From IMG/VR virus record IMGVR_UViG_3300042691_028414: a stretch of DNA of 64,000 bases. One strand, written 5' to 3'. Made by a program: the position numbers and the translations under genes. Source of the stretch: a virus (taxonomy: Duplodnaviria > Heunggongvirae > Uroviricota > Caudoviricetes). Within the stretch, counting starts at the first letter, position 1; each line of letters begins with the position of its first letter. Under the pieces are notes generated by a model, which saw only the letters and a program-made list of their open reading frames with translations, was not told the DNA's origin and ran no database searches. Positions 4,718-51,551 of the stretch are shown one piece after another.

Positions 4718-4889
4718 TCATAATTTTATCTGTGAATACATTTTCATTAACATCGTGTTTACCAAGGTTATAAGAAACATAAGTCTTGTCCTCATAATAA
4801 ACACGAATCATAAGGAACCCTAATTCTGAAATATACACTGTTTCAATTTCACCAACACCCTTTGGTGTGTTAATCTTTGGATTCTTCAT
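4704..4889 (-). CDS. hypothetical small protein; start moved to the internal Met
   Basis: TATATTTG sits 4 nt upstream of the ATG at 4889. The longer ORF-track start would run through that promoter motif and overlap the upstream gene. Confidence 0.45.
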   Translation of the reverse strand: MKNPKINTPKGVGEIETVYISELGFLMIRVYYEDKTYVSYNLGKHDVNENVFTDKIMNDVR

Positions 4890-4911
4890 TTCACAAATAT
4901 AATAAAAATTT

Positions 4912-5163
4912 TTAATTCTCAAACATATCTTCACACCAAATTGGTGTTTTTTCTCCAACATAGGATCCACTAACATTAAAACTGAAATGTTCTAAGGCAT
5001 CTTCCAAAGTCATATCTTCTTCGGTGATTAAGATTTCAATACATTTTCTCACAGAATAAATTAATCTCATTGATTTTTCATCAATTCCAATTACCGCATC
5101 GTCAAATCCATCCGCCTTCAGGATTTCCTCATCTTGATAATACTCCACAATTTCTTCTAACAT
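4912..5163 (-). CDS. hypothetical protein
   Basis: 83-aa acidic ORF. Confidence 0.45.
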   Translation of the reverse strand: MLEEIVEYYQDEEILKADGFDDAVIGIDEKSMRLIYSVRKCIEILITEEDMTLEDALEHFSFNVSGSYVGEKTPIWCEDMFEN

Positions 5164-5168
5164 AATAC

Positions 5169-5270
5169 TTAATCTTTACAACAAACATCAAAAATTATTT
5201 GTGCGGTAATAACTATAATGGTTAAACCAATTACAGATAAATGCATAACTTGTTCAATAATACTTAACAT
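5169..5270 (-). CDS. hydrophobic mini-protein of about 33 aa
   Basis: My own translation: MLSIIEQVMHLSVIGLTIIVITAQIIFDVCCKD. It fills the gap between 5277..5630 and 4912..5163. Too short to appear in the ORF track. Confidence 0.35.
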   Translation of the reverse strand: MLSIIEQVMHLSVIGLTIIVITAQIIFDVCCKD

Positions 5271-5276
5271 ACTTCT

Positions 5277-5630
5277 TTATATTACTATTTTATTATCAAC
5301 TAAAATAGGTTGTGGTAATCCATCTCCCCATCCAACATTTTCAAATGCTTTCGGGTTAGTGAATTCATCTTCCATCTCCAATTCAAACTCTCCACCACTA
5401 CTTAGTATCTCTGTTAATTTTTTTAATGAATTCTCATCATTAGGTACTTGATTAGGTGTTGCCATTATTTTTAGACATTCACTTAATTCTTTTCTTGTCT
5501 CACCACCAACACAAGTTTTAATCTCATTGTTTGGGGTTAGATATAAATCATTTTTCATTATTGGTTGTTTTGCAACCACATACGGTAACTCATTTGGATC
5601 AACCAATACCAACTTTACACTTTTTCTCAT
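5277..5630 (-). CDS. hypothetical protein
   Basis: 117-aa ORF. Confidence 0.45.
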   Translation of the reverse strand: MRKSVKLVLVDPNELPYVVAKQPIMKNDLYLTPNNEIKTCVGGETRKELSECLKIMATPNQVPNDENSLKKLTEILSSGGEFELEMEDEFTNPKAFENVGWGDGLPQPILVDNKIVI

Positions 5631-5935
5631 TTTTCCACTTTTTTATAGATGTATTTCCAATTATAATTTCCACATTGTCCACAAGAATCTCCTTCATCAG
5701 ATTCTTCCGTATCGTATTCGTATTTTTCAGAAGTAGTAACAACCATTTCAGCAATCTGATACCAATCATTCATACCGAGTTTATCCTTTAATGATTTTAA
5801 TTCATCAATTAATTCGTCCTGTAAGTCAGTAATCATTTCAGGTTTCCTGTTATCATATTCGTGCATGAATAAAGACTCATCATCCACCATAACATCAGGT
5901 CCAAAACAACCCTCACTAATTTCAATTTTTTTCAT
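5627..5935 (-). CDS. hypothetical acidic protein with a C-terminal CGQCGN motif
   Basis: 102-aa ORF, 4-nt overlap with its neighbour. Confidence 0.45.
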   Translation of the reverse strand: MKKIEISEGCFGPDVMVDDESLFMHEYDNRKPEMITDLQDELIDELKSLKDKLGMNDWYQIAEMVVTTSEKYEYDTEESDEGDSCGQCGNYNWKYIYKKVEK

Positions 5936-6273
5936 AACCCTAATCTATGATTTCTGTTCATTTCTAAAATAAACTTTTTTAGACTTTCAACTATTATATC
6001 GGCATCCATTTTTTTATACAAATCAGGATATCTTTCCACAAGTAATTTATTTTCTTCAAGTTCATTACAACTGGTAAGTATATCCTCTAACATTGATTTG
6101 AAGATGTGTTCTTTATCTTTCTCCATATTTTTTTCAAATATCATACCCTCAAGTTCTTGAGTATAATCAATTAACTCTTCAACAGGATGTAAATCTATTA
6201 GATGTTCATTACCTTTAAATATTTCATATATACTCTTCATAGTGTTTATTACATAATGTTCTATACCAACCAA
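5932..6273 (-). CDS. hypothetical protein
   Basis: 113-aa ORF. Confidence 0.45.
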   Translation of the reverse strand: MVGIEHYVINTMKSIYEIFKGNEHLIDLHPVEELIDYTQELEGMIFEKNMEKDKEHIFKSMLEDILTSCNELEENKLLVERYPDLYKKMDADIIVESLKKFILEMNRNHRLGL

Positions 6274-6619: not shown

Positions 6620-6781
6620 ATATCTTTTTTTCTTTTTTTGGTAAACTTAAATGAAAACCATAAAATAACTTTTTGAATTCCTCTTTTAAATGTTTTCATC
6701 TCTTTATATTTTGATTTTGGGAATCTCCCGTGATTCCCCATACTATCATAATCAGCACACCCAACTATATCCTTCATTTTA

Positions 6782-7701: not shown

Positions 7702-7782
7702 TTACATATTTTTTTTGTGTTTAAAAAAATACGCAATTAATAAAACTAATGATGTATATAATACAAACAACAATAATCCCAT
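7702..7782 (-). CDS. hydrophobic mini-protein of about 26 aa
   Basis: My own translation: MGLLLFVLYTSLVLLIAYFFKHKKNM. TATATTTG sits 4 nt upstream, with the terminator at 7811-7845 just upstream of the promoter. Confidence 0.35.
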   Translation of the reverse strand: MGLLLFVLYTSLVLLIAYFFKHKKNM

Positions 7783-7810
7783 ATCACAAATATAATAATT
7801 TTTTTTATAT

Positions 7811-7845
7811 AAAACAAACCCCCAACTTACATTGGGGGTTTTATA
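7811..7845. terminator. rho-independent terminator
   Basis: aaacccccaacttacattgggggtttt: an 8-bp GC stem followed by a T-run. Confidence 0.65.
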
Positions 7846-8529: not shown

Positions 8530-8736
8530 TTAAATAAGATGTTCATTCCCATTCAATATGTTAACAATCTTTCTTGCCAAAGTATGTTCTTCAGTATGGT
8601 AAAAAGTATCATTATTGTTTCGTAGATATCTTCTACTCCAATATTTAATAAACAAAAGATCCACTTTTTTTTCAATTATGAATCTTTTGTTTCGTTCATC
8701 AAGAACCATCCTATATTTTCTTTTACCCAATCTCAC
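8530..8736 (-). CDS. hypothetical small basic protein (GTG start)
   Basis: TATATTTG sits 4 nt upstream of the GTG at 8736. Confidence 0.4.
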   Translation of the reverse strand: MRLGKRKYRMVLDERNKRFIIEKKVDLLFIKYWSRRYLRNNNDTFYHTEEHTLARKIVNILNGNEHLI

Positions 8737-8777
8737 TTTGCAAATATAGTAAAAGACTTTAATTAAAACAAATTTAT

Positions 8778-10718: not shown

Positions 10719-11849
10719 TCAATGGGAGTCACCAACATTATTTTTCTCCCCATATATTAAATAATCAGGATTGATAACCTTTGCAACTTTATGACGATCA
10801 CCAGTCACAGATTTAACAACGATACCTTCGTGAGGAACTTTGGTTCCTTTTATAAAATTACCGAAGACATATTTATCTTGTTCTTCTTTACTCCAAGTTC
10901 CTTCATATAATACTTCAACTTGTGGGAGTTCCAAACAATCAAAATGAACGGTTTCTTCAAGGTGTGGTTGATAAACACCATCAACTTCAACATCAAAACC
11001 AACAAACTTTATTTCCTCCAAACCATATTCATAGTTTTTTTGGATTCCTTTACCATAGATTTCCCCATAGATAGTAAGTCCTTGTTCCAAAGATTCAGGG
11101 TAATATGTATCCTTAACATGATCCCAAAGTTTTTTTCGTATGTCATATTTGTTGGCAACTTCTCTCCACACATCAGTATCGTAGAATCCTTGAGAATCAG
11201 ATCCTTTCTCCACATTATGAGAACCATACACATATTCAAACTCAACCCACTCATTACCGAAGAACTTTTTCACTCTATCCCACAAAGAAAGTTTTTTCTT
11301 TCTAACTATTCCAAATCTGGCATTAGTTCCGTGTATTTTACGGGTGATAACAACCTCATCTTCTTCGGTGAACATATCAGGAACATTCTTCATGTTTGGG
11401 AATTTGTGATAGATATGGAAGTTTGGATTTTGGTGGTATCTAACTTTCTTACCTCCACCCAAAGTAACCATTTTAACCGGTGGTTCGTATTTGGTTATTC
11501 CAAGTATTTCCATCATATCATCACCTTCATTAACATTGTTCACCAATGATTTTGGTGCCAAGTACTTGAATGGTATTAACAAACATTCGGAATAAAATCC
11601 ACGAAGTTTTACGGTTCTAACTCGTTGTCCTTTACGAAGGTAGTTAGTCACTTCCATCAAGTCAGACAATGCTTGTGGTATTACCGCATCAGTGGTTGCA
11701 ACAACAACTTTATCTCCTTCTTGGTATTCACCTTTTTTGGTTATCGCCTGCCATCCACCAACAAGTACAAGTTCTATGTTGTCAGCATTTGGTATTTCAA
11801 CTACTGAACCTATTTTTCCAACATATGCTACGCTATTTTGATTTTCCAT
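10719..11849 (-). CDS. RNA ligase, Rnl2-like nucleotidyltransferase, with an extra N-terminal domain of about 150 aa
   Basis: Motif I RKIHGTNARF (the T4 Rnl2 KIHGTN), motif IV HEGIVVKS (EGxVxK), motif V RHKVAKVINP (KxK). Confidence 0.65.
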   Translation of the reverse strand: MENQNSVAYVGKIGSVVEIPNADNIELVLVGGWQAITKKGEYQEGDKVVVATTDAVIPQALSDLMEVTNYLRKGQRVRTVKLRGFYSECLLIPFKYLAPKSLVNNVNEGDDMMEILGITKYEPPVKMVTLGGGKKVRYHQNPNFHIYHKFPNMKNVPDMFTEEDEVVITRKIHGTNARFGIVRKKKLSLWDRVKKFFGNEWVEFEYVYGSHNVEKGSDSQGFYDTDVWREVANKYDIRKKLWDHVKDTYYPESLEQGLTIYGEIYGKGIQKNYEYGLEEIKFVGFDVEVDGVYQPHLEETVHFDCLELPQVEVLYEGTWSKEEQDKYVFGNFIKGTKVPHEGIVVKSVTGDRHKVAKVINPDYLIYGEKNNVGDSH

Positions 11850-11952: not shown

Positions 11953-12213
11953 TTACAATTTTTCAAATTCTTCTTTTACCAAATCTATTTCTTCATTCAA
12001 CCTCTCAAGTTCTTTGGTTATCATTTCTTTAATAATCTCTTTGTTATAGAAACTAACCTCACCTTTTCCGTTGAAACCTCCAGAGTGTGTAAATCCAATC
12101 GTGACACTCAAACCACAAGATTTAAGCGCAGATTCTAATTTATACTTCTGTCTTTCCAATCTATCAAGATCTTCTTTAACTTTTTTTGCTTGTTCAAATT
12201 TTTCTACTTCCAT
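11953..12213 (-). CDS. hypothetical coiled-coil protein; start moved to the internal Met
   Basis: TATATTTG sits 5 nt upstream of the ATG at 12213. Confidence 0.45.
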   Translation of the reverse strand: MEVEKFEQAKKVKEDLDRLERQKYKLESALKSCGLSVTIGFTHSGGFNGKGEVSFYNKEIIKEMITKELERLNEEIDLVKEEFEKL

Positions 12214-12251
12214 TTTGACAAATATATTAATAATTTTTTTATACCACAACA

Positions 12252-12878
12252 CTACCCCAAACTTTCAGGATAATACAATAATGTTGGGTTTTTTTTAGCG
12301 ATGTCTATATCAGGAAATCTCTCCTTGAAAGTCTTAACATCAAACTTACCAGTTATCAAATGCCACCCATTCTTTGTTGGTATAACCGCTTCAATTTTTT
12401 TACCTTCAGGTTTAAGATAATTAATAAATTGTGATAGTTCAGTAACGGCATGAAAATCGGTTACGTCAATATCCACAATCCACCGTTTCTCTTGAGTTTT
12501 AATTTGCCCAACAACTGAATCAAATAAACCTTTTTGGTTTGATACACCGTCTCTAATCCGTTCGGCAAGTATTGCCAACATATTTAATGACACATCTTTG
12601 TGGTTTTGTTTTTGGACATGGATATATGCACGAGCCTTAAACATTTCACAAAGTTGTTTAATCTCATCATATCTTTTTTCCAAATATGGGATGGACTCAA
12701 TACAATAAGTTTTAATTGTTCTTACTGATTGGTGATTATCCCTTTCACCTTCCGGTTGATCCTTCTTTCGTTTAAATACATATAACATATAGAAGTCACC
12801 ATAATGTGAAAAATTCAATAATGGTTTTATTAAATCTATGTTATCAATCTTGTTCATTTTCATCATCATAATATTCAT
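12252..12878 (-). CDS. hypothetical protein with IVDIDVTD and KNGWHLI motifs
   Basis: A DxD motif, then a GWH motif about 35 aa downstream, then PDIDIA. This could be an AEP primase-polymerase or a minimal nucleotidyltransferase; unresolved. Confidence 0.4.
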   Translation of the reverse strand: MNIMMMKMNKIDNIDLIKPLLNFSHYGDFYMLYVFKRKKDQPEGERDNHQSVRTIKTYCIESIPYLEKRYDEIKQLCEMFKARAYIHVQKQNHKDVSLNMLAILAERIRDGVSNQKGLFDSVVGQIKTQEKRWIVDIDVTDFHAVTELSQFINYLKPEGKKIEAVIPTKNGWHLITGKFDVKTFKERFPDIDIAKKNPTLLYYPESLG

Positions 12879-13380
12879 CTACTTTCATTGAAACTGGTGG
12901 GGTGAAATCCCAAACAGTGTTTTCAAACTCTGTGATCCATTCATTCAATTCTTCTCTTGTCCAAAATGGAGCAAAATGTGGACGGTAACTAAACGGAACA
13001 TTGTCTTTATTTTCCCAATCTTCAAGTCGTTGTGTTACATCCTCAATTAGGTTTTTATCCTTATTGTACTTATTCCATTGTCTATAATCATCTTCGGATT
13101 TGATATACATAACATCACCATAATTATAAAAATCCATCTCAGGGAATTTCAAATTTGGGTTGTTGGTATATACATCAACAATACCATTGTCTCCATTGTA
13201 TTCACCACAAAGTTCTTTTAAAGAATGTAAACTACTTGGTCTTTCTTCCCACACACTACCGAACTGACGAACAGAACAGATATACAAATACCCATCATCA
13301 TATGAATGAATAAGTCCTTCAATTTTATTTCTTAAAGAAATAAGTTCGTCCATTGTAAGTTTAGTTAAGTCCATTTTCAT
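12844..13380 (-). CDS. hypothetical acidic protein
   Basis: 178-aa ORF; TACTTTTG sits 4 nt upstream of the ATG. Confidence 0.5.
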   Translation of the reverse strand: MKMDLTKLTMDELISLRNKIEGLIHSYDDGYLYICSVRQFGSVWEERPSSLHSLKELCGEYNGDNGIVDVYTNNPNLKFPEMDFYNYGDVMYIKSEDDYRQWNKYNKDKNLIEDVTQRLEDWENKDNVPFSYRPHFAPFWTREELNEWITEFENTVWDFTPPVSMKVDEYYDDENEQD

Positions 13381-13438
13381 TTTACAAAAGTAATCATTTT
13401 ATATTTACCAAACAATATTTTTGGATATTTATTTTAAT

Positions 13439-13888
13439 ATGAACCTACAAGAATCCATAAGAAGAATATTAAGGGAAGAAACCATAAAAGATAAATATAA
13501 AAAAGAATATATTAATTTTCATGGTAACATGGAAGGGTTTGATGACAATTGGGATAATCTGTTTAATAAAGATTTTAATGATGGTGGTTTGATGAATATA
13601 CCTGAATATATTGAATTGAGTAGATTAGTTAATATTATTGGGGAATTTAAAAAGGATAAAAATATACATTGGATAAGAACCTCTGATGAATATTTATTTT
13701 ACGATACGGATTGGTTGTTTTTATCCGATGTTAAAATAAATGATAACGCTAAAATAATCAGAATAAAAACACACAAATCAAATATTAATTTAGATCAAAC
13801 AATAATTCAAAATTTAACTTTTAATTATGAAAAAGAGATTACCTTGAAAAACTTGGATTTAGAAAATTATGAAATAATAAAATATTAA
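13439..13888 (+). CDS. leader-peptide family member (MNLQESIRRILREE subtype)
   Basis: ATG at 13439; the ORF-track start is a TTG 18 nt upstream. TATTTTTG lies upstream. The product is an Asn/Lys-rich protein. Confidence 0.5.
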   Translation: MNLQESIRRILREETIKDKYKKEYINFHGNMEGFDDNWDNLFNKDFNDGGLMNIPEYIELSRLVNIIGEFKKDKNIHWIRTSDEYLFYDTDWLFLSDVKINDNAKIIRIKTHKSNINLDQTIIQNLTFNYEKEITLKNLDLENYEIIKY

Positions 13889-14926: not shown

Positions 14927-15130
14927 TTAATATTGTTTAATTACATCCCCTCTTAAATAAATGTTATCAAATGACACACCATTTACAGATTCAACACCAA
15001 GATGAACTTGTCTACCTTCAATTTTGGTAATCACACCAGAATCTTCTACAGATCCTGTAATTCTATTAACTACCTTAACATAGTCACCCACTTTGATGTC
15101 CCTTCCGTTTTTATCTGTCGTTTTTTCCAT
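14927..15130 (-). CDS. hypothetical small protein
   Basis: TATATTTG-TGGT-ATG immediately upstream. Confidence 0.45.
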   Translation of the reverse strand: MEKTTDKNGRDIKVGDYVKVVNRITGSVEDSGVITKIEGRQVHLGVESVNGVSFDNIYLRGDVIKQY

Positions 15131-15236
15131 ACCACAAATATAAGAATTATTTTTTAATATGACAAAAAATAAACAACATTAAAACGATTGTTGATCATCG
15201 GACGTTATATGAAATATTTAAAAAATTTCATTTGCG

Positions 15237-15321: not shown

Positions 15322-15534
15322 TTATTTTACATTATCAATTCTTTTTTTAAGAATTTTTTTCGCCTCTTCAAGGGTTGGGAAGTAAGATAACAATTTCCAA
15401 TGTCCTCCCACATTTATATACGGATACCAATAAGTGGATTTATTAGAAACCCCCCTTTCAATTTTAACATCGTATTGTCCGTATTTACCTTCGTATACGT
15501 GTCCAGCAACATCTTTATTTAACTTTAATACCAT
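15322..15534 (-). CDS. hypothetical protein
   Basis: 70-aa ORF. Confidence 0.4.
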   Translation of the reverse strand: MVLKLNKDVAGHVYEGKYGQYDVKIERGVSNKSTYWYPYINVGGHWKLLSYFPTLEEAKKILKKRIDNVK

Positions 15535-15691
15535 AACACTCCAATTTTTTATCCGTTACATTCCACAAATCTTTTTTTCCTTCCGTCATATGACAATTGT
15601 GTTTCTTACCGGTTCTCTCAGCAAAATCAACAATCATATCATTATGACGATTACGGACGATATGAGGACATTCTTTACAGGGTTTTTTCAT
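15515..15691 (-). CDS. small Cys/His-rich (zinc-binding) protein; start at MKKPCKECPH
   Basis: TATATTTG-TGTT-ATG; the ORF-track TTG start lies inside the promoter motif. Confidence 0.45.
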   Translation of the reverse strand: MKKPCKECPHIVRNRHNDMIVDFAERTGKKHNCHMTEGKKDLWNVTDKKLECYGIKVK

Positions 15692-15707
15692 AACACAAAT
15701 ATACAAA
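15692..15707 (-). promoter_or_regulatory. TAnnTTTG promoter element abutting a start codon (exemplar)
   Basis: TATATTTG-TGTT-ATG; the same arrangement recurs at 12 other sites (see findings). Confidence 0.5.
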
Positions 15708-15723
15708 TTACTTTTTAATAAAA

Positions 15724-15770
15724 CAAAAAACCTCCCAACATTTCTGAAGGGAGGTTAAATATTTTTTATA
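15724..15770. terminator. rho-independent terminator
   Basis: cctcccaacatttctgaagggagg hairpin followed by a T-run. Confidence 0.65.
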
Positions 15771-16469: not shown

Positions 16470-16766
16470 TTAAATATCTAAATTTTTAACTTTAATTCCT
16501 TTTGTATTTCTTTTTAAACCTGATGGTGTTGTATCGTCAGTTCTAAAACTACAAACAACATCAAACATAGCTTTTTTAAAATGGTGGAATGTTCCTTTTT
16601 TTCCATGGTATTCACCCTTTATTTCCAATTCACCATAAACATCTTCCAATTCTTCTTTTGACATCTTTAATATTTCAGATTTACTTTGTTTCTTTTTGGA
16701 TTCGGTAATAACCCTTTGGATTATTCTTGTCAAGTCTGATTCGGTTAGTCTTATTACTTTTTTCAT
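16470..16766 (-). CDS. leader-peptide family member
   Basis: MKKVIRLTESDLTRIIQRVITE; TAAATTTG-TAAA-ATG upstream. Confidence 0.55.
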   Translation of the reverse strand: MKKVIRLTESDLTRIIQRVITESKKKQSKSEILKMSKEELEDVYGELEIKGEYHGKKGTFHHFKKAMFDVVCSFRTDDTTPSGLKRNTKGIKVKNLDI

Positions 16767-16800
16767 TTTACAAATTTATTAATAAATATCTGATTAAACA

Positions 16801-16835
16801 AAAAACCCCACTCTTATTTGAAGTGGGGTTTGTAA
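16801..16835. terminator. rho-independent terminator
   Basis: ccccactcttatttgaagtgggg hairpin. Confidence 0.6.
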
Positions 16836-16838: not shown

Positions 16839-17207
16839 TTATTTCTTAATCGGAACTGTGTCAACTGGTTCAAGTGTCACTTTGGTGATTCCTTTTCTAA
16901 TGAAGTTAAGTTCCTTTGCGGTTCCGTAACTCAAATCAATCACAAAACTTGATGATTTTGGTAACCTGTCGTTGATCTTAACATATCTAACAGAATCATT
17001 ACTTGTGTTTGTTACTTTCACAATTGTTCCGAACTTAAAGTACTTATGAGCCGCAGTTAAACTGTCTTTGTGGAATAGTTCTCCTGATGATGTCTTTCTA
17101 CCTGTCCAATGTTGTCCGTAATAAGATGCGGTTCCTGTGTAGATTTTTTCTGATGATTTAAATGATAATAGTGTAATTAGTGGAATAAATAATAATAGTT
17201 TTTTCAT
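16839..17207 (-). CDS. secreted RlpA-like double-psi beta-barrel protein (lytic-transglycosylase-like)
   Basis: Signal peptide, then ASYYG...TSSGE...TAAH...VTN...VKINDRLP, which matches the RlpA/DPBB pattern. Confidence 0.55.
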   Translation of the reverse strand: MKKLLLFIPLITLLSFKSSEKIYTGTASYYGQHWTGRKTSSGELFHKDSLTAAHKYFKFGTIVKVTNTSNDSVRYVKINDRLPKSSSFVIDLSYGTAKELNFIRKGITKVTLEPVDTVPIKK

Positions 17208-26547: not shown

Positions 26548-26874
26548 TTAGTGTCCGTAATCAATAGGTAAATATCCACTCAAATTATAGGTTTCTTCCA
26601 ACCATATTTTTAGAATATCTTGTATTTGTTCATATTCCATATCAAAAATGGATTCAAAAAATATCCAAATTCTTGTGTAATCAATAAAAACAAACTTATT
26701 TTTATCATCTTGATAATAGTAAAATAACGGTTTTTTATCCTTATTAACATAAAATGTTCTATCATAGTTAACAACCTTAGTTAGATTACCGAATTTATTA
26801 TTCAACCAATTTAACGCCAGTCTGTCCCTTTTATTTTCCGTTATAATTATTTTCATATATGAATAAATATCCAT
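26548..26874 (-). CDS. hypothetical protein
   Basis: 108-aa ORF. Confidence 0.45.
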   Translation of the reverse strand: MDIYSYMKIIITENKRDRLALNWLNNKFGNLTKVVNYDRTFYVNKDKKPLFYYYQDDKNKFVFIDYTRIWIFFESIFDMEYEQIQDILKIWLEETYNLSGYLPIDYGH

Positions 26875-26910: not shown

Positions 26911-27759
26911 TTAGAGTTGTTCTTCTTTTATTTCCTGTAAGGTTTTAAAGTAATTTACTCTCGTATTGGCTATCTCGGTATAGTTTGGTGATAACTCAAT
27001 ACCTAACCATCTTCTTCCCAATACTTCAGCGGCAACTAATGTTGTTCCACTACCAGCGAATGGATCTAAAATCACATCGTTTTTGTAGGATAATATTTTG
27101 ATCGCTTTAGTTGGGATGTCCATTGAGAACGTCGCCTTGGTGAGTGATTTAGTATCTGCAAAGTAATTCCACTGACCAAAAACAAGTTCCATAAACTCCT
27201 TCTTATCTTGTTCTTCATATACAACTTTCTTTTTTATGGTTCCATCCTCCTGTTCAATTTCAGTAGGTGTCCCTTTCCACTGAGGTTCTCCCTTAACCTT
27301 TTTAATGTGGTGTTTTTTGTATGCAAGTATTACACACTCCTTTGGATTATAAATATACGGACTTGACGGACTCATCCAAGATCCCCAAGCAGTTGTTTTA
27401 CTACGATGAGGTGAATCTTCTTCTAAATCCACGATACCGAAGAAACCAAACCCAATTTGTTTCATTAATTGATACATTTCAGAAACAAAGAAAATTCTTC
27501 CCCCTTTCTTTTGTCTATTGATTTCATATGGAATATTCAACGCGATTCGTCCATCATCTTTCAAAACATTATATGCTTCAGTTAACCAATTTTTGGCAAA
27601 TACCAAATACTCCTCAAACTCCACATCATCATCGTGGGTATCATACGCAATCCCGACTCCGTAGGGTGGTGATGTGACGATTAAATCCACAGACCCTTCA
27701 GGTAATGTTTTCATCACCTCAATACAATCTCCTGTTATTATTTTTCCTGTTTCTATCAT
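26911..27759 (-). CDS. DNA methyltransferase, beta-class N6A/N4C
   Basis: DLIVTSPPYG motif IV at the N-terminus; DPFAGSGTT motif I at the C-terminus. Confidence 0.85.
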   Translation of the reverse strand: MIETGKIITGDCIEVMKTLPEGSVDLIVTSPPYGVGIAYDTHDDDVEFEEYLVFAKNWLTEAYNVLKDDGRIALNIPYEINRQKKGGRIFFVSEMYQLMKQIGFGFFGIVDLEEDSPHRSKTTAWGSWMSPSSPYIYNPKECVILAYKKHHIKKVKGEPQWKGTPTEIEQEDGTIKKKVVYEEQDKKEFMELVFGQWNYFADTKSLTKATFSMDIPTKAIKILSYKNDVILDPFAGSGTTLVAAEVLGRRWLGIELSPNYTEIANTRVNYFKTLQEIKEEQL

Positions 27760-28595
27760 TTTTTCTCCAATGTTTCAATGTGGTGTTGCAAATACCACAA
27801 TGCTTTTTTAAGATCCTGTAATTCTTTATCTAACTCTTTCTTACCCGCTCTTGAGATATACTTCACAGTATTACCAAGGGAGAATCCTAAGTCCCAAGCA
27901 TCAATCACCTTGATTGCTTCATATGGGTTTGACTCTCCCCCATAGTGGTTAGGGTGATTTACTTGTTCCTTTTTTTCTTCCATTTCTTTTTTCTTTTTGT
28001 GAGCCCAAAATACTCCATCAATATGATAGGTATTAAATCCTTGCCAGTCAAATGATTCAATTACATTATTAACACCTTCAGTAGGATCTTTTGAGGACTT
28101 ATAATCATCCAAATATACAATACCATCATCATTAATAAAATTAATCACATTATTAATATCACCTCTAACGCATTCCTCAAAGTGGCACCCATCAATCTCA
28201 ATAAAATCAAATTTTGTTTTTGATGTGTCTAAAACTCTTGGAACAACCTCAAGGGAGTTACCAGGAAATAAACTCAAATGTATGTTCCACTTCCTGTAAT
28301 GCTTGGCAAGTATTGAGTGATTGTTAACAGTACTCTCATATTTACAGTCATCAAATACAAAAACAATTATTGGTTTCCTATTAAAATCAGGATCTTCATT
28401 AATTATTTTCAATAATGTCTCACATATTAAAACCATTGAATGTCCTTCATTGAATCCTATTTCAATAATATTTCTTGGTTTAATTTGGTATACCAAATCT
28501 TGTAGGGTATGAATCCTTTCTGGGTACCAACTAATGTTACCCTCACCCTTACCAAACATCATTCCGGGTAATTTGTTAAATATATTATTTTCCAT
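27756..28595 (-). CDS. hypothetical protein with a Rossmann-like N-terminus and a DUF3310-like C-terminal tail
   Basis: IIEIGFNEGHS, then a C-terminal HPNHYGG...GNTVKYISRAGKK. The 4-nt overlap with the MTase gene suggests co-expression. Confidence 0.45.
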   Translation of the reverse strand: MENNIFNKLPGMMFGKGEGNISWYPERIHTLQDLVYQIKPRNIIEIGFNEGHSMVLICETLLKIINEDPDFNRKPIIVFVFDDCKYESTVNNHSILAKHYRKWNIHLSLFPGNSLEVVPRVLDTSKTKFDFIEIDGCHFEECVRGDINNVINFINDDGIVYLDDYKSSKDPTEGVNNVIESFDWQGFNTYHIDGVFWAHKKKKEMEEKKEQVNHPNHYGGESNPYEAIKVIDAWDLGFSLGNTVKYISRAGKKELDKELQDLKKALWYLQHHIETLEKK

Positions 28596-29784
28596 TTAAA
28601 TCAAATTTAATTTCTTTTGTAGGGATATTACTTCCATCCATTGTTTTACCATCCAATTCAAATTCTTCATCATTGAAGTATTCTTTTAATAGTTCATCGG
28701 TTGGGATTGTTTTATAATCCATCTTAAGGTTGTCCATATCAAGTTTATAATTCATTTTATGTTTGATGTCGTCAATCTCTTCAGCGTTTCTTAATGATTC
28801 ACATATTTGATAAATGATTTTATATGGATCAGCATTAGATGATGGTCGTCTATCTTCAACATATCCCTTCCATTCTTTTGCGGTTGATTGTGGAACTCTA
28901 ATTGATGCACCTCTATCTGAAATACCCCAACTAAACTTATTAATTGATTGGGTTTCAAATTTACCCGTCAATCTTAATTCATTTGATGAACCATAATTTT
29001 CAATATGTTCTTGGTGTCTTGTGGCAAAACTTGAGAAAATTGATTTAAAATGATTTTCACCACCTTCTTCCCTCATTTTATAATTTGAGAAGTTTGTGTG
29101 AAGTCCAGATCCATTCCATTCACCTTTTTGGATTGGTTTTGGGTGTAGTTCAATCCCATAATTATATTTTTCGGACAACTTATGTAATAGGTATCTAGAC
29201 ATCCATAAATCATCTCCTGATTTCAATTTACCTTGAGAGAATACTTGATACTCCCATTGTCCAAGTGCAACCTCGGCATTTATTCCTGTTATGTTAATCC
29301 CATACCTTAAACATAAATTCATATGTTCTTCAACAAATTCTCTACCCGCAACATATTCTCCAACACCACAATAATATTTACCTTGTGGTTCCAAGTTGTT
29401 TTCATCGTGGCCTAAAATACATTTATTTTTTCTATCATAGATAAAGTATTCTTGTTCAAAACCAAACCACAAATCCTCTTGTTCATTACCAAGTAATGAT
29501 CTGGTATTTGATTGATGTGGTGTTCCGTCTGAATTCATAACCTCACAAAGAACATACACACTACCAAATTTATCATCCAAATAATGTCTTACAGGTTTTA
29601 AAATACAGTCTGAAGTCCCAGTTTCTGCTTGGTTTGTTGATGATCCGTCAAAGTTCCATTCAGGAAATCTACCCGTTATAAATGAATTTTTTATGTCATC
29701 GTAATTAACAATTTTTACCTTACTTCTTAAATTTGGTTCCGGCATATATCCGTCTAACCACAGATATTCAAGTTTAATCTTCAT
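28585..29784 (-). CDS. glutamine synthetase, type II-like
   Basis: N-terminal EYLWLDG...RSKV matches the GSII EYIWIDG..RSKT motif; the catalytic region contains EVALGQWEYQV. Confidence 0.65.
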   Translation of the reverse strand: MKIKLEYLWLDGYMPEPNLRSKVKIVNYDDIKNSFITGRFPEWNFDGSSTNQAETGTSDCILKPVRHYLDDKFGSVYVLCEVMNSDGTPHQSNTRSLLGNEQEDLWFGFEQEYFIYDRKNKCILGHDENNLEPQGKYYCGVGEYVAGREFVEEHMNLCLRYGINITGINAEVALGQWEYQVFSQGKLKSGDDLWMSRYLLHKLSEKYNYGIELHPKPIQKGEWNGSGLHTNFSNYKMREEGGENHFKSIFSSFATRHQEHIENYGSSNELRLTGKFETQSINKFSWGISDRGASIRVPQSTAKEWKGYVEDRRPSSNADPYKIIYQICESLRNAEEIDDIKHKMNYKLDMDNLKMDYKTIPTDELLKEYFNDEEFELDGKTMDGSNIPTKEIKFDLNGK

Positions 29785-32407: not shown

Positions 32408-32501
32408 ATTTTATAAATATTATTGATATACCAAAATTATTTACAAAATACATTCTATTAAGATATTTATAAGAAAATAAACCTAATAAAAACAATCAGC
32501 T

Positions 32502-32648: not shown

Positions 32649-32714
32649 TTTATTTCTACCAAAGAAATTAATGGGTGGTTACGGAAGTTTCCACCTTTTT
32701 TTATATTTATAGGT

Positions 32715-33731
32715 ATGTCAAAAGTTTTAGATTTAGTAAATAAATTCAATAATGGTGAATGGGATGATATCTCTGATGTATTCGGAGGTGATGTAAAAAG
32801 ATTTTATTCCTATGTAAAACGCGCAGGATTTTTAAATTATTTTGATTTAGATAGTATACACTACGAAGATGAACGGTTTGTAAATGAGTTGATGTTATAT
32901 CGCCTACAAAACGATCCTTCATATCTAAACGAGATTGTTCAGGGTTTTTTAAGTGATGTTGAAATTCGTGGTGATGGTTATTATTTAATGTTGAGTGACT
33001 TATCTGAGTTATCCGATTTTTTTAAGGACAACCAGTATTCAAGAGAATATAACGATAGAGATATTGTAAAAAATGTTTTAGATGAGGATTGGTGGGAACC
33101 TTATAGTGATACCGTTTACGATGTTTATAAAGATATTGTTGAAGAACTTAACGAAAAGAATATGAAATTATTAGCCGAGAGAGTTTTAGAATTGGTTGGT
33201 AATCAAGAATTATCTTTAGATGATTATAAAAGTGAATTGTTTAGAGATATGTCGGATGACGATGGTAGATTTATCATTACTGAATCAAATGTGATGTCTG
33301 TTGTTGAGGATGAGGACTCTATGAATTCATTATTTAAAGGTGATTTAAATGATTTGATGAATAGTTTTCGTTGGTTGGGTGATGAGGCTTACAATCAGGC
33401 ATATAATGATGAAGTGTACTCGGAGGTATTTGATGAGTTATCAACTTACTTTGAGGGTAAGCACAGTTGGGTTGAAAACAAAAACGGTTTAAAAACCGTA
33501 TATATACCTTATATTAAAATTAAAAACATTAAAAGTGATATTGAGAATTTTTTAAATTCATTTGCTGGATATGAGGATACTTTATTTGAATATGGTGATT
33601 ACTCATCAATGTTACGCCATTACATGGGCGATAGTGATGATTTTTTAAGAATCAGGGTTCCTGACTATCCAGATAATAGAAAAGTTGTTGAGAATATCAA
33701 TGACGGGTTACCTGATCGTCTTTATTACTAA
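32715..33731 (+). CDS. hypothetical acidic protein
   Basis: 338-aa ORF; TATATTTATAGGT motif upstream. Confidence 0.55.
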   Translation: MSKVLDLVNKFNNGEWDDISDVFGGDVKRFYSYVKRAGFLNYFDLDSIHYEDERFVNELMLYRLQNDPSYLNEIVQGFLSDVEIRGDGYYLMLSDLSELSDFFKDNQYSREYNDRDIVKNVLDEDWWEPYSDTVYDVYKDIVEELNEKNMKLLAERVLELVGNQELSLDDYKSELFRDMSDDDGRFIITESNVMSVVEDEDSMNSLFKGDLNDLMNSFRWLGDEAYNQAYNDEVYSEVFDELSTYFEGKHSWVENKNGLKTVYIPYIKIKNIKSDIENFLNSFAGYEDTLFEYGDYSSMLRHYMGDSDDFLRIRVPDYPDNRKVVENINDGLPDRLYY

Positions 33732-35110: not shown

Positions 35111-35452
35111 TTATTTTAATCTTGTTAAATTTTTTATGAATAACACAACTTCATCAAGTTGTGATATGTCGTATATTACTTTTATTTTATAAGTAGTCTC
35201 AACCTCCATTTTAGATAAATACAAATAGATACCAGCATTATTTCTAAAAATACCTTCAGTATGGATTAAAGAACCTCCATAAGATTTACTATCAAGATAC
35301 TCAATTGTAAATCGTTTAGTTAATAAAAGTTCAGGTGTAATCGGAATATAATCCATACACTCAATAACACTGTACACTTTATTCGTTTTCTCCAATAAAG
35401 AAGTAATAAAGTCATCAATCTTTTTAAAATATTTTATTTCACTATTCTCCAT
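35111..35452 (-). CDS. hypothetical protein
   Basis: 113-aa ORF. Confidence 0.45.
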   Translation of the reverse strand: MENSEIKYFKKIDDFITSLLEKTNKVYSVIECMDYIPITPELLLTKRFTIEYLDSKSYGGSLIHTEGIFRNNAGIYLYLSKMEVETTYKIKVIYDISQLDEVVLFIKNLTRLK

Positions 35453-35490: not shown

Positions 35491-36243
35491 AATCATTTCT
35501 TCGGCAAGTTCCCAAAGTTTTGTGTTGATGTTGTTTACCGCCAAGATACTTTTAAGATCTCGTAGTTTTGACTTTCGTCCTGTTTTAGTTCGGTAGTCAA
35601 ACCCTCCTCGTACAAACTTCTCTTGTACTACATTGAAGGTTGTCCACAAGTCGTTATTACTATCTTCCACACGATTTGGTGTAAGGATGTCAACAAGTTG
35701 GTTGTCAGTTGGGATTGATCCTTCAGCCCATCGGATTTTTGACGCTTTCTGAACATATTGAATTTGTTCGTCAATGGTAAGTTCTCGTTCCATCATTCGT
35801 CCAACAGATCCTTGGATTGTTGGTAGTTTCTTTGCAAAACCGTCCATCAATCGTTTCACATCGTCAAGTTCAAACCCACTGTGTCTAACATTAAATTTGT
35901 CGGCAACTGATGTAGGTACTGTAAGTCCGTTAGAACATACCAATCGGTGAAGTCCAGCACTGACTGAGAATGTTGACATACCATTGTGTGAGTTACGAAC
36001 AATTGCTTCAACCAATGTGTCTCCAACTGAAGGAAGTTCTCCATTACGGAATCTAATTTGATGGGTTGCGTGAATTCCTTTACCTGTTTGTTTAACATCT
36101 GAAATTTCCCAACCTTCACGATCGAAAAATTCAATGACTTGATCGGTTGGTACAAAGACATACTTGTCAGACAACTTGCTTGATGCTGATGTTGCGAATA
36201 CTGAAGGGGCTACGGATTTGATAAGTTCTGGTGTATAAATCAT
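35488..36243 (-). CDS. DUF932-like phage/plasmid protein
   Basis: RNSHNGMSTFSVSAGLHRLVCSNGL fits the DUF932 core. Confidence 0.4.
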   Translation of the reverse strand: MIYTPELIKSVAPSVFATSASSKLSDKYVFVPTDQVIEFFDREGWEISDVKQTGKGIHATHQIRFRNGELPSVGDTLVEAIVRNSHNGMSTFSVSAGLHRLVCSNGLTVPTSVADKFNVRHSGFELDDVKRLMDGFAKKLPTIQGSVGRMMERELTIDEQIQYVQKASKIRWAEGSIPTDNQLVDILTPNRVEDSNNDLWTTFNVVQEKFVRGGFDYRTKTGRKSKLRDLKSILAVNNINTKLWELAEEMI

Positions 36244-36310
36244 AATGTTTTGGTTTTAATTACATCACAAAGATAGTAATTAATTTGTAATTGCCAAATA
36301 CGAAATGAAA

Positions 36311-38516: not shown

Positions 38517-39356
38517 TTAATAATTCAGTATAAGTAATTCTTCACCCATATTTTGTTTGGTACCTTTTTTGGCTGCCGCCGCCTTAGCGAATTCTTTTTT
38601 CTCCCAACTATATTGTTCTTTAGGGAACCATTCCGATAACAACGGGAAGTCATAATACGACAAACTAAATTTACCTTCCATTCCTTTTAATATATTTGCA
38701 AGTCTTTCATGATCTTCTCTGTCAAAATCGTGATTTGAATAGTAATTTTCAGTTTTCCAATATGGTGGATCAACATAAAAATATGTTGTTGGTGAATCAT
38801 ACTTTTTAATGACATCCTCAAAATCCATATTTTCAACATCCGTAATTTTCAAGAAATGTTCTACCCAATCAGGTTTAGATAATTTATCTCTAAATGTAAG
38901 ATACTTTGATTTGTATTTACCTTTCAAGTCAATGAATGAACTTGTCTCAGGTTTAGAACCACTAAAAACCTGTGTAAGGACATAAGCGTATTTAGCAGCA
39001 ACTTCATAATTACCAGGTTCTACACTGAAACCTTCACTAAAAATTTCAGCCTGAAACCTGATAAACTGTTCTTTATAAATTGGTGGAGTTACTTCTACAC
39101 CAAATTTCTGACAATCAATTGCGTTAATTGCATTCAATAATTCAGTTGGGTTCTGAATACATTTAAACAGATTGTAATTAAGTGGATTAAAGTCGTTATA
39201 AACAACTTTCTTTAGGTTTGGGAACTGTTTTAAGTCCATGTTGAAGAAACACCAAAACATCCCTCCGAATGTTTCAACATATGTTTCCATATTATTATCA
39301 TAGAAAGGGACTATCCACTTTCCAATTTTACTCTTACCTCCGATATAACTTAACAT
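38517..39356 (-). CDS. Dam-like N6-adenine DNA methyltransferase (alpha class)
   Basis: YIGGKSK at the N-terminus; VDPPYW at the C-terminus. Confidence 0.8.
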   Translation of the reverse strand: MLSYIGGKSKIGKWIVPFYDNNMETYVETFGGMFWCFFNMDLKQFPNLKKVVYNDFNPLNYNLFKCIQNPTELLNAINAIDCQKFGVEVTPPIYKEQFIRFQAEIFSEGFSVEPGNYEVAAKYAYVLTQVFSGSKPETSSFIDLKGKYKSKYLTFRDKLSKPDWVEHFLKITDVENMDFEDVIKKYDSPTTYFYVDPPYWKTENYYSNHDFDREDHERLANILKGMEGKFSLSYYDFPLLSEWFPKEQYSWEKKEFAKAAAAKKGTKQNMGEELLILNY

Positions 39357-49054: not shown

Positions 49055-49091
49055 ATTATTAAACTATACCTAATAAATATAAAAGATAAAG

Positions 49092-49125
49092 AAAAACCCC
49101 CATTTTAGGTGGGGGTTCATATATG
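49092..49125. terminator. rho-independent terminator
   Basis: aacccccattttaggtgggggtt. Confidence 0.65.
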
Positions 49126-49144
49126 ATAGGGCTGTTATTTTAAA

Positions 49145-49591
49145 TTAACGATCCTCAATTGTAAATCCAGAAGAATCAACTTCAGGTCCATTATCAATTA
49201 TTGTCTCAACAACAATTTCCTCGTTAATAAACCTGGATACCGACGCAAATTCAATTTCAACATCATCCATAATACTTTTCTTAAACTCGTTACACTGTTC
49301 TTCATTCTCAAAAGAACCACACTGTGTTGCTGGTGAATGATATGTCTTTATTCTGTACGCACCATAAGGATTTTTAAGTTCCGAAACATTCATAATCAGA
49401 TTTTCAAAATGATAATCATCACTTCCGTCTTTGGTGATGAACCTTCCGGTACCGTCCCTTTGGAATGTTTGTGAGTAGTGATACCCACAGTTATTACAAC
49501 TTACATATTGTTCCCCTGTTTTGTAATAGAAGTCACTAAACGCTTCGTGTTTACAATTTGTACATTCAATATAATCAATTACGCTTCCCAT
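49145..49591 (-). CDS. zinc-ribbon protein
   Basis: CTNCKH...CNNCGYH motif. Confidence 0.45.
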   Translation of the reverse strand: MGSVIDYIECTNCKHEAFSDFYYKTGEQYVSCNNCGYHYSQTFQRDGTGRFITKDGSDDYHFENLIMNVSELKNPYGAYRIKTYHSPATQCGSFENEEQCNEFKKSIMDDVEIEFASVSRFINEEIVVETIIDNGPEVDSSGFTIEDR

Positions 49592-49624
49592 ATTATTTTT
49601 TAATTTCCCAATAAGGTTGTTTTT

Positions 49625-49660
49625 GTGTATGTGGGGGGTTATACCCCCCCATTTTTTTAG
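49625..49660. terminator. rho-independent terminator
   Basis: gtggggggttataccccccca followed by a T-run. Confidence 0.6.
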
Positions 49661-50124
49661 TTTTGTTTAAATGATTTGTCTGCCCAAGTTTTTGCTCCCA
49701 TTCTACCCCAAAGTTCCATGTCACACATATCAGGGAATGACTCTCTCATTGTCCCAACAGTTAACACATCCAAGAACCCTTTGTCGATTGAGTACCACTT
49801 ACCACCTTTAATTGTGTAAACATTCATCCACTGTCCGTACTCATTTTTTGCTTGGATATTAACCAATGAGTTTTTTTGGTATCCACGAATAACACTCGCC
49901 GCAGTTCCTTTAGTGTCGTGGATATTGATGAATCCTGCCTGACATTTATTTGCGATACGGAATTCGTATTCTTTGTCCGCATCTTTAAGGTGGTTTGAAA
50001 CCGAAACTGAAATTCTTTTACCTTTTACTGTGGTGTTGAATGATCCGTAGAATACGTCTCCTGATAATGTTCCTTCGTTTACTTTGATGATGTCGTTTGT
50101 CATAATATTTCGTTTTAGATACAT
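49657..50124 (-). CDS. hypothetical protein; start at MYLKRNIM
   Basis: TACATTTG sits 2 nt upstream of the ATG at 50124. Confidence 0.45.
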   Translation of the reverse strand: MYLKRNIMTNDIIKVNEGTLSGDVFYGSFNTTVKGKRISVSVSNHLKDADKEYEFRIANKCQAGFINIHDTKGTAASVIRGYQKNSLVNIQAKNEYGQWMNVYTIKGGKWYSIDKGFLDVLTVGTMRESFPDMCDMELWGRMGAKTWADKSFKQN

Positions 50125-50177
50125 TACAAATGTAATGATCTTTTTTAAACCACCAAACAAAAAGTATAGAAAATTAT

Positions 50178-50978
50178 TTAGATATAATCAAATAATTCAG
50201 AACTCTCATTTCGTAACCTTCTCAAAGCTCTTTCTTTAATCTGTCTTACTCGTTCTTTAGTTAAACCAAAATCACCTCCAATATCTTCCAAAGTTCTTGG
50301 TGTTCCACTAAGTCCAAAATAATCCTCAATAATTACTCGTTCTCTTTCATCTAAAACACTAAGTGTATTGATTAATTTTTCTTTAAGAATGTCCGCAGTA
50401 TTAAAAGCCGCATCAGGAGCGTCTGCATCCATATTTGGTATCATATCAAGGAATGTATCTCCCTCATCATTGATATTCATATCTAAGTCAATCATTGATG
50501 GTAAAGATGAGAATTTATCCGATAGTTTTCCTCCATTATTCTCAATTTCTTTTTTAGCTTTATGAAGTTCCTGAACAACATTTACAGGAAGTCTAATTGT
50601 TCTCGCATTGTCATTTAAAGACTGAATAATAGATTGTTTAACCCACCAAACGGCATATGAAATAAATCTCAAATTTTTACTCCAATCAAAGTTTTTAATT
50701 GCTTTCAATAACCCTAAGTTACCCTCAGCAACCAAATCAGGAAAATCCAAACCTTGATTTTGATATTGTTTTGCAACGGTAATAACAAATCGTAAATTAC
50801 CTGTTAACAACTCCTGTTCAACTTGTTTTCGTTGTTTGTCAGTTAAAGTATCCGACATCATAAGTTTAGATAATTCTTTTTCCCTTTCAGGTGTCATAAC
50901 TTTAATCTTCCTAATATCCTTTAGGTAGTGAGAGATTTCATCCTGATTAATGGGCATTCCTGTTCCTTTTTCCTTCAT
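50178..50978 (-). CDS. sigma-70 family RNA polymerase sigma factor
   Basis: Region 2: LRFVITVAKQYQNQGLDFPDLVAEGNLGLLKAIKNFD...YAVWWVKQSI...ARTIRLPV. Region 4.2: TLEDIGGDFGLTKERVRQIKERALRRLR. Confidence 0.85.
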   Translation of the reverse strand: MKEKGTGMPINQDEISHYLKDIRKIKVMTPEREKELSKLMMSDTLTDKQRKQVEQELLTGNLRFVITVAKQYQNQGLDFPDLVAEGNLGLLKAIKNFDWSKNLRFISYAVWWVKQSIIQSLNDNARTIRLPVNVVQELHKAKKEIENNGGKLSDKFSSLPSMIDLDMNINDEGDTFLDMIPNMDADAPDAAFNTADILKEKLINTLSVLDERERVIIEDYFGLSGTPRTLEDIGGDFGLTKERVRQIKERALRRLRNESSELFDYI

Positions 50979-50983
50979 ATATT

Positions 50984-51520
50984 TTATTTTGAGTATTGTT
51001 CCAATTTTAATTTCTCCGCCTTTGTGAGTGAATTTATTCCCTTGTCATTGATTTTATCTAAAAGTTCGTCCAATGACATATTACACACATCTTCATTTGT
51101 TTTATTGATAATAAATGGACTACCTTGATTAATCATATCCATAAACATATCAAAAATCGCACCATCATTACTAATATCTTCAGAACTAACAGTGAAAGTA
51201 TTAATCTCAATCTTATCCTCCTCATCAATAGACAATAGGTGATTTTTTCTATCCTTACCCATATTTGTTGCCATCTTACCATTAAATGGTATTAAGGTAA
51301 ACATAATGTCTTCTAATTCTTCAAAAACCATCTCAACATACATAGACATTTCTTCATATTTTAACTCAGATTCAAAATGAAAAATTGCGTTACCATCACC
51401 ATAAATGTATTTTATCTGTTCTGAAATTACAATGGGTTGGATTTCTTTACCAATTTTAGTGGTTAAGGCTTCACTATCCATAGTTTCACTTTCACCGTAC
51501 ACAAACATTAGATATCTCAT
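50984..51520 (-). CDS. hypothetical protein; start moved to the internal Met
   Basis: The TATATTTG motif lies inside the ORF-track TTG extension. The gene is co-oriented immediately upstream of the sigma factor gene. Confidence 0.45.
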   Translation of the reverse strand: MRYLMFVYGESETMDSEALTTKIGKEIQPIVISEQIKYIYGDGNAIFHFESELKYEEMSMYVEMVFEELEDIMFTLIPFNGKMATNMGKDRKNHLLSIDEEDKIEINTFTVSSEDISNDGAIFDMFMDMINQGSPFIINKTNEDVCNMSLDELLDKINDKGINSLTKAEKLKLEQYSK

Positions 51521-51551
51521 ATTGTTTTTTTTACAAATATACAAATAATTA

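Follow-up and report, generated by a model that had tools for sequence, protein, structure and literature searches.

Where does an mRNA begin when a promoter element stands only four bases before the start codon? The question is raised by a 64,000-nucleotide (nt) stretch of DNA from a virus of the Caudoviricetes (IMG/VR record IMGVR_UViG_3300042691_028414; the whole stretch is called the window below), in which the octamer TAnnTTTG, resembling the -7 element of Bacteroidota promoters, ends at a fixed short distance upstream of a series of start codons. An earlier reading, made from the sequence alone, had taken this as a sign of near-leaderless transcripts. With a probability that we put at about 0.8, these are near-consensus Bacteroidota sigma-A (sigma-ABfr) promoters placed so that the mRNA would start at the start codon, and the arrangement would be a conserved strategy of a phage clade.

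The window has a G+C content of 30.8%, and nearly all of its genes lie on the minus strand. A search for near-identical DNA against 50,697 phage records gave no match to it, and its large proteins have distant matches only. Given that IMG/VR holds well over 100 related contigs, some of them 270-320 kb long, we take the window to be part of the genome of an uncultivated jumbo phage that belongs to a large clade.

Boxes at a fixed distance from start codons

All 12 TAnnTTTG octamers listed in the sequence-only reading were found again on the minus strand, with the same coordinates and spacings. A scan of the window returned 70 minus-strand and 58 plus-strand boxes, the majority of them within genes, and added two sites to the list: 21926-21933 (d = 4) and 19189-19196 (d = 5), where d is the number of bases between the end of the box and the start codon. 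The tally is nine units with d = 4 and two with d = 5. The genes behind them, between 4.9 and 22 kb, are small and for the most part unannotated:

4887-4923, minus strand: predicted leaderless unit; TTTG, 18 nt, TATATTTG (box 4894-4901), tgaa, ATG of a 61-amino-acid gene (4704-4889)
7780-7841, minus strand: terminator and predicted leaderless unit; hairpin 7816-7841 with its T-tail forming the -33 TTTG, TATATTTG, tgat, ATG of open reading frame (ORF) 7702-7782
8734-8772, minus strand: predicted leaderless unit with a GTG start; TTTG, 20 nt, TATATTTG (box 8741-8748), caaa, GTG of gene 8530-8736
12211-12250, minus strand: unit with d = 5; TATATTTG, tcaaa, ATG of gene 11953-12213; predicted leader 0-1 nt
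13378-13412, minus strand: predicted leaderless unit; TACTTTTG, taaa, ATG of gene 12844-13380
15128-15166, minus strand: predicted leaderless unit; TTTG, 20 nt, TATATTTG, tggt, ATG of a 67-amino-acid gene (14927-15130)
15689-15754, minus strand: hairpin and predicted leaderless unit; hairpin 15731-15754, T-run, -33 TTTG, TATATTTG, tgtt, ATG of a 58-amino-acid gene (15515-15691)
16764-16831, minus strand: terminator and predicted leaderless unit; terminator 16803-16831 with the -33 TTTG in its tail, TAAATTTG, taaa, ATG of a 98-amino-acid gene (16470-16766)
19181-19196, minus strand: unit with d = 5; TATATTTG, caatt, ATG of a metallophosphatase gene (18530-19183)
20179-20234, minus strand: terminator and predicted leaderless unit; terminator 20213-20234, TATCTTTG, tggt, ATG of a gene for an AAA_33/polynucleotide-kinase-like ATPase (19792-20181)
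21919-21956, minus strand: predicted leaderless unit; TTTG, 19 nt, TATCTTTG, aggt, ATG of a 91-amino-acid gene (21646-21921)

The order terminator, promoter, gene that had been described for several of these sites holds for four units, each with an intrinsic terminator directly 5' of it (7816-7841, 15731-15754, 16803-16831 and 20213-20234); in three of the four the T-tail leads into the -33 TTTG.

The codon at d = 4 behaves as the true start: alignments of orthologues begin at residue 1, ATG and GTG interchange at it, and terminator or promoter DNA lies upstream. The orthologue of gene 4704-4889 in the related locus L053 retains d = 4. The ORF at 7702-7782 (minus strand) encodes 26 hydrophobic amino acids (MGLLLFVLYTSLVLLIAYFFKHKKNM) and falls below the length of the ORF list; in the relative L053, which is 81% identical in DNA, the frame (12570-12650) is also open, hydrophobic and at d = 4. 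Orthologues of gene 8530-8736 in L004 and L053 read TACATTTG ctaa ATG, with the ATG at the same position as the GTG of the window. Both genes at d = 5 have relatives at d = 4, namely the promoter-bearing orthologues of 11953-12213 in L005, L019 and L060, and those of the metallophosphatase in L064 and L065 (TACATTTG tatt ATG), and close orthologues of 21646-21921 retain d = 4, whereas distant ones have a gap of 15-17 nt. There are two exceptions to a start at d = 4 or near the box: gene 12844-13380, with orthologues that start two codons later and lack the promoter, and the ATG at 50124, which was rejected (see below).

Public metagenome contigs carrying the exact 129- and 58-amino-acid proteins run through the promoters and supplied independent gene calls; the JGI, ENA and NCBI calls use the same ATG as the d = 4 reading for genes 19792-20181 and 15515-15691. 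The sequence-only reading was also right that ORF starts for proteins beginning MYIC... are artefacts, since 15706 and 51544 are TTG codons overlapping the box.

The gene products say little. Eight of the ten leaderless genes scanned against Pfam and PHROG had no match below E = 0.001; the assigned product is the AAA_33/polynucleotide-kinase-like ATPase, the metallophosphatase having been identified separately. Early timing is presumed, and with most of these genes lacking a domain match it cannot be argued from function.

The unit at 13378-13412 lies in a divergent intergenic region of 40 bp (13381-13420) that holds two overlapping, opposed boxes, the minus-strand TACTTTTG at d = 4 and the plus-strand TATTTTTG (13416-13423), 15 nt before the ATG at 13439.

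The spacing against chance and its conservation in related phages

The sequence TAnnTTTG-N4-ATG occurs eight times on the minus strand, against 1.42 +/- 1.25 (maximum 7) in 300 dinucleotide-preserving shuffles; for an ATG at offset 4 from a box the binomial P is 3.9e-4, or 0.016 when corrected for 41 offsets. The full pattern TTTG-N17-21-TAnnTTTG-N4-ATG was observed six times and averaged 0.063 in the shuffles (maximum 1), which bears out the earlier argument that the fixed spacing is not due to chance. Non-coding DNA makes up 8% of the window and contains 19 of the 70 sense-strand boxes (5.6 expected; P = 1.7e-6) and two of the 58 antisense-strand boxes. Promoters of the E. coli sigma-70 type were also tried and set aside as inapplicable, with 91 matches in the window against 111 in shuffles.

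The related phages were compared in 115 viral contig loci (1.75 Mb; L001-L115), fetched by way of relatives of two window genes; dereplication left 645 unique contexts. The raw histogram of distances from box to ATG peaks at d = 4 (169 cases) and d = 5 (56), and a reversed control motif gave no peak at d = 4 or d = 5 in the same loci. Among the unique contexts, 129 in 36 protein families have d = 4 and 59 in 31 families have d = 5; at other offsets the counts are mostly 0-20, with secondary peaks at d = 14-16.

The ATPase gene 19792-20181 shows most clearly what is kept and what is not. In 31 of its 32 promoter-proximal unique orthologue contexts d is 4, and these contexts have 11 different 4-mers between box and start, five box variants and a distance of 1 to 21 nt from T-run to box. 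For the 58-amino-acid gene 15515-15691, d is 4 in 16 of 24 unique orthologue contexts and the codon is ATG or GTG. All told, 13 GTG and two TTG codons were counted among the 129 unique d = 4 contexts; if leaderless mRNAs are indeed made at the GTG sites, the host must initiate on a 5'-terminal GUG. That the 4-nt spacing is conserved throughout a large clade of phages even as the neighbouring sequence diverges is to our mind the strongest argument that the spacing is probably functional.

Could the spacing merely reflect descent from a copied terminator-promoter cassette, or chance in AT-rich DNA, with no functional constraint? The spacers do share an AT-rich look, and similar TTAAAAA tracts recur in several units. 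Against this stand the shuffles (0.06 against 6), the 36 unrelated protein families with d = 4, and the variation of 4-mer, box variant and upstream distance among orthologues at a constant d of 4; the d = 4 sites are not recent identical copies, and controls from cultured phages and Bacteroidota genomes show no peak. We regard this explanation as scarcely credible.

Some further observations concern the same loci. Among orthologues of 15515-15691, a GTG stands exactly 4 nt past the box in L005, L009, L056, L059, L067, L098, L102, L107 and L115. A family of 42-amino-acid hydrophobic peptides has d = 4 in all six of its members. Promoters turn over among the relatives, and one and the same gene may appear leaderless, leadered or, when internal to an operon, promoterless; an example of the leadered form is TATATTTG tagaaataaa..ATG, with a gap of 15-17 nt.

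Promoter anatomy and the predicted start of transcription

Most intergenic boxes in the window have a TTTG upstream at a spacer of 18-20 nt, and TTTG, an 18-20 nt spacer and TAnnTTTG together make up what is, by its sequence, a complete predicted Bacteroidota sigma-A promoter. In nine of the 11 leaderless window units a TTTG or TTG is found at a spacer of 16-20 nt, the sites at 19189 and 20186 being the two without. In a logo made from 114 unique d = 4 sites, the box at -12 to -5 is preceded by TT at -16/-15, an A-tract at -24 to -20 and TT(T/G) at -35 to -33. The box variants at d = 4 are TATCTTTG (50), TATATTTG (49), TACCTTTG (10) and others, with a G at box position 3 or 4 in three of 129. 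Between box and codon, T is found at -4 in 95% and at -1 in 82% of the 114 distinct sites. The start-site consensus is T(-4)NNT(-1)A(+1)T(+2), in which A(+1) and T(+2) follow from selecting the sites by their ATG; its T(-1)A(+1)T(+2) agrees with the pyrimidine-purine-pyrimidine "start element", Y(-1)R(+1)Y(+2), of bacterial promoters in general (PMC12641261).

RNA-seq of F. johnsoniae places the box as T-12 A-11 .. T-8 T-7 T-6 G-5, followed by 4 or 5 nt to the transcription start site (PMC6847099), and the map of start sites of F. psychrophilum likewise has the box at -12 to -5 (PMC9723704). Since the published box lies at -12 to -5, d = 4 would put +1 on the A of the ATG, giving an mRNA with no 5' untranslated region. 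The sequence-only reading had assumed a start 6-8 nt after the TTTG; the published maps give 4-5 nt, and 6-8 nt would fall inside or past the ATG. Its leaderless conclusion survives because the actual distance from box to start is shorter than that; of the "leaderless or 1-3 nt leader" mRNAs it had proposed, the leaderless ones would remain and the 1-3 nt leaders are dropped.

We therefore envisage the following arrangement. A -33 TTTG, an A/T-rich spacer of 18-20 nt and a -7 box TAT(A/C)TTTG ending 4 nt before the start codon would direct RNA polymerase to start 5 nt after the box, with the A of the ATG, occasionally the G of a GTG, as +1; the resulting mRNA would have no 5' untranslated region and would be translated from its 5'-terminal AUG. 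Some units would follow an intrinsic terminator and use its T-tail as the -33 element, and the remaining promoters of the same type would give ordinary A-rich leaders of 9-25 nt. A large group of uncultivated jumbo phages, known from contigs of up to about 320 kb, would have conserved this arrangement as a strategy of gene expression.

Several points weigh against this. The -33 TTG is missing at three window sites (19189, 20186 and 22288), and the 5-nt option at d = 4 sites would make the T of the ATG +1 and so lose the start codon. The phage and its relatives are found only as metagenome contigs, and we infer the position of the start site. A few large gene families, together with the two genome regions used to fetch the loci, dominate the family counts given above. 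The phage encodes its own RpoD-like sigma factor, which may be a reader of the TAnnTTTG promoters; and leaderless mRNAs are rare in Bacteroidota (PMC6847099; PMC9723704).

Promoters of the same type with a predicted leader

The same promoter is also found further from start codons:

22269-22295, minus strand: predicted leadered promoter; TATATTTG, 16 nt (tagaaataaaaaacat), ATG 22271; predicted leader about 12 nt
36241-36298, minus strand: predicted leadered promoter; TTTG, 19 nt, TATCTTTG, 24 nt, ATG 36243 of a DUF932 gene
50101-50157, minus strand: predicted leadered promoter; TTTG, 19 nt, TACATTTG, ATG 50103 (d = 23, leader about 19 nt)
51518-51564, minus strand: predicted leadered promoter; TTTG, 19 nt, TATATTTG (box 51534-51541), 13 nt, ATG 51520; predicted leader 9 nt; heads the operon containing the phage sigma-factor gene

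Three of these had been counted as near-leaderless. The proposed 2-nt spacing at 50127-50134 was rejected, as related phages do not share the ATG 2 nt past the box; 67 related loci keep the promoter TTTGG-N19-TAYCTTTG with a gap of 19-28 nt (for example tattcacaaaaacgataagact), and the protein, starting MT(T/N)..., begins at the ATG equivalent to 50103, as in an ordinary leadered gene. Nor does a near-leaderless reading hold for the sites with 13 nt (51534) and 16 nt (22288), for which leaders of 9 and 12 nt, respectively, are predicted. At the latter site the ORF start assigned to ATG 22316 is an artefact.

If the sigma-A-type promoters at 32432, 36268, 41251 and 43665 and the plus-strand ones at 13416 and 24701 are also counted, the window has some 20, of which about 11 are predicted to be leaderless. 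The published shares of leaderless mRNAs are 3.7% in B. thetaiotaomicron and 5.5% in F. psychrophilum (PMC9723704), and 11 of 20 departs from either rate with P <= 1.5e-9. Comparison of leaderless with leadered genes for A-richness, second-codon usage and 5' folding energy gave differences that were small or due to two large families.

The leadered promoters bear on a second explanation, in which the octamer is a signal at the RNA level (a translation enhancer or protein-binding site in the 5' untranslated region) and transcripts start further upstream. A translation signal would likewise show a fixed distance to the start codon. The identical box is, however, also found 13-29 nt from the starts of other genes, and its position is therefore independent of translation signals; it has a -33 TTTG at the proper distance, with an A-tract in the spacer, stands directly after terminators, and is absent from orthologous genes inside operons. 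Bacteroidota translation moreover prefers A-rich upstream sequence, not the U/G-rich UAUAUUUGU (PMC6847099). An RNA signal is thus very improbable, and a promoter set flush with the start codon is the reading we prefer.

The phage sigma factor and a second motif

Which sigma factor would read these promoters? The window encodes one of its own:

50178-50978, minus strand: RpoD-family sigma factor of 266 amino acids with regions 1.2, 2 and 4 and no region 1.1

Its best 120 matches, all apparently of this clade and on contigs of up to 328 kb, are 77-94% identical, which places it among the most conserved proteins of the clade; like it, sigma-ABfr has no region 1.1 (PMC6847099). These properties would suit an alternative in which the leaderless architecture is the same and the phage sigma is the main, or an additional, reader of the TAnnTTTG promoters. 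The motif equals the published host consensus, however, and the host holoenzyme should recognise it; the sigma gene itself sits behind a TTTG-N19-TATATTTG promoter (51534-51541) and needs a pre-existing reader; and a different motif, TATATTTAT, with no -33 element, is available as a candidate target of the phage sigma. We consider this alternative unlikely. The leadered sigma-A-type promoter ahead of the sigma gene fits, and does not prove, a scheme in which host sigma-A would read the TAnnTTTG promoters first.

The second motif, TATATTTAT or (a/t)aTATATTTAT, has a logo without a -33 TTTG. In the relatives (L001-L186), the distance from the end of TAnnTTTA to an ATG is 5 nt in 59 unique contexts and 6 nt in 39, and 92% of the 5-nt contexts have T at -1. 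The window has the 10-mer 4 nt or 15-18 nt before an ATG:

18501-18517, minus strand: second motif; TTATATTTAT (18508-18517), atgt, ATG of gene 17253-18503; just after a hairpin, no -33 TTTG
32701-32717, plus strand: second motif; TTATATTTAT (32701-32710), aggt, ATG of gene 32715-33731
53165-53174, minus strand: second motif, further site
49073-49082, minus strand: second motif, further site
60366-60375, plus strand: second motif, further site

Possibly it marks another class of promoters, likewise leaderless and of middle or late timing. As an AT-only box without an upstream -35/-33 element it is like a T4-type late promoter; unlike that promoter, it reads TATATTTAT on the sense strand, the T4 box TATAAATA giving weak peaks only. 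T4-type late promoters are read by a gp55-like minimal sigma, whereas the only sigma found in the window is RpoD-like with region 4, and identity with the T4-type late promoter was rejected on box and sigma alike. More tentatively, there could be two leaderless classes, the sigma-A type TAnnTTTG with d = 4 and TATATTTAT with d = 5, the latter possibly read by the phage sigma; this we hold to be rather doubtful. Were it true, a large part of the phage's transcription units would dispense with leader-dependent initiation and use a phage-specific translation channel, and Bacteroidota ribosomes would be predicted to work efficiently on a 5'-AUG and even on a 5'-GUG.

Specificity of the arrangement and the host

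Flavobacterium phage immuto (150 kb) has no d = 4 site, Cellulophaga phage phi17:2 (50 kb) has one and no peak, and in 413 kb of Bacteroidota genome pieces d is 4 for four of 600 boxes, again with no peak. Loci in IMG/VR with the exact pattern number at least 120; among the matches listed, 51 of 120 belong to this clade, and the 69 non-clade loci show a weak excess at d = 4 (12 against about 4-5). Given the lack of a peak in the two cultured phages and the genome pieces, and the weak excess outside the clade, the d = 4 design distinguishes this clade from Bacteroidota phages at large.

The sequence-only reading had argued for a Bacteroidetes/Flavobacteriia host. The phylum is supported by the promoter type, which is peculiar to Bacteroidota, and by two protein comparisons: the best phage matches of the metallophosphatase are in Flavobacterium and Cellulophaga phages (41-51% identity), and the best cellular matches of the glutamine-synthetase-like gene 28585-29784 (minus strand), an auxiliary metabolic gene and a clue to host phylum, are mostly from Bacteroidota (about 50-57% identity). 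The latter include Saprospiraceae and Chitinophagaceae as well as Flavobacteriaceae, and the assignment to the class Flavobacteriia is not upheld; Bacteroidota remains the probable host phylum.

Further features of the window

Among the recognisable phage-like products are DNA methyltransferases, DnaJ, thioredoxin, lysis-type enzymes and a DNA primase, together with:

10719-11849: RNA ligase
53202-55577: SbcC-like ATPase

The RNA ligase, the metallophosphatase (18530-19183) and the AAA_33/polynucleotide-kinase-like ATPase (19792-20181) form a possible RNA-repair set, and one further window protein has a HAD_SAK_2 ("Swiss Army Knife RNA repair") domain. Three DNA methyltransferase genes lie within the 64 kb (26911-27759, 38517-39356 and 51552-52463, minus strand), two of them N6_N4_Mtase and one of the D12 class; gene 27756-28595 combines a Methyltransf_24 domain with DUF3310. 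Scans of the window for tRNAs and with Rfam found nothing.

At some places a hairpin and T-run terminator is followed after only 4-12 nt by the next ATG, with no recognisable promoter between; such pairs are seen at 21103-21136 and 5' of genes 26548-26874, 35111-35452 and 16839-17207. They imply either read-through or an unrecognised signal.

Significance and comparison with known systems

Bacteroidota lack Shine-Dalgarno pairing and their leaderless mRNAs are rare; the clade would provide dozens of natural test cases for initiation on a 5'-terminal AUG or GUG. The arrangement also allows start codons in these genomes to be corrected where ORF finders run into the box, as in the MYIC... starts, and offers a clue to host phylum, readable from sequence, for abundant uncultivated phages of about 300 kb. 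The compact cassettes of terminator, promoter and ATG are possibly useful for expression in Flavobacteriia and Bacteroides.

Both parts of the design, the Bacteroidota promoter and the leaderless architecture, are known; what appears to be new, and is well supported by indirect evidence, is their systematic joint use by a phage clade. A literature search found no paper describing a promoter set flush to the ATG.

The phage promoters have the same -33 TTTG and -7 TAnnTTTG as sigma-ABfr promoters, with a spacer of roughly 19-20 nt (Bayley, 2000; Vingadassalom, 2005; Baez, 2019; Guerin, 2021), and share with them the A/T-rich tracts between the elements and a TAHHTTTG form of the box, nearly throughout without G at positions 3-4. 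Host promoters, however, give median leaders of 24-32 nt, with 3.7-5.5% of mRNAs leaderless (F. psychrophilum, PMC9723704; B. thetaiotaomicron), whereas about half of the phage units have the box only 4 nt ahead of the start codon. A strong T at both -4 and -1 is a further feature of the phage set, whose -33 element is also clearer than that reported for F. johnsoniae.

Like the leaderless genes of Actinobacteria, Deinococcus-Thermus and Archaea, these genes have a promoter element at a fixed short distance that leaves no room for a ribosome-binding site, and ATG predominates with some GTG (Zheng, 2011; PMC3160421). They differ in that the element is the Bacteroidota -7 box and not a Pribnow box, that the distance is 4 nt, and that the carrier is a phage clade and not a cellular lineage. 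In the same survey, leaderless genes were reported for one of 37 Bacteroidetes/Chlorobi genomes (2.4% of genes), non-Pribnow promoters being undetectable by it (Zheng, 2011; PMC3160421).

Phages themselves offer a precedent of another scale. The cI gene of lambda, expressed from P_RM, has a transcript that begins at its AUG. Leaderless phage mRNAs of that kind are single regulatory cases, whereas the design described here would be genome-wide and clade-wide, and would extend over dozens of gene families.

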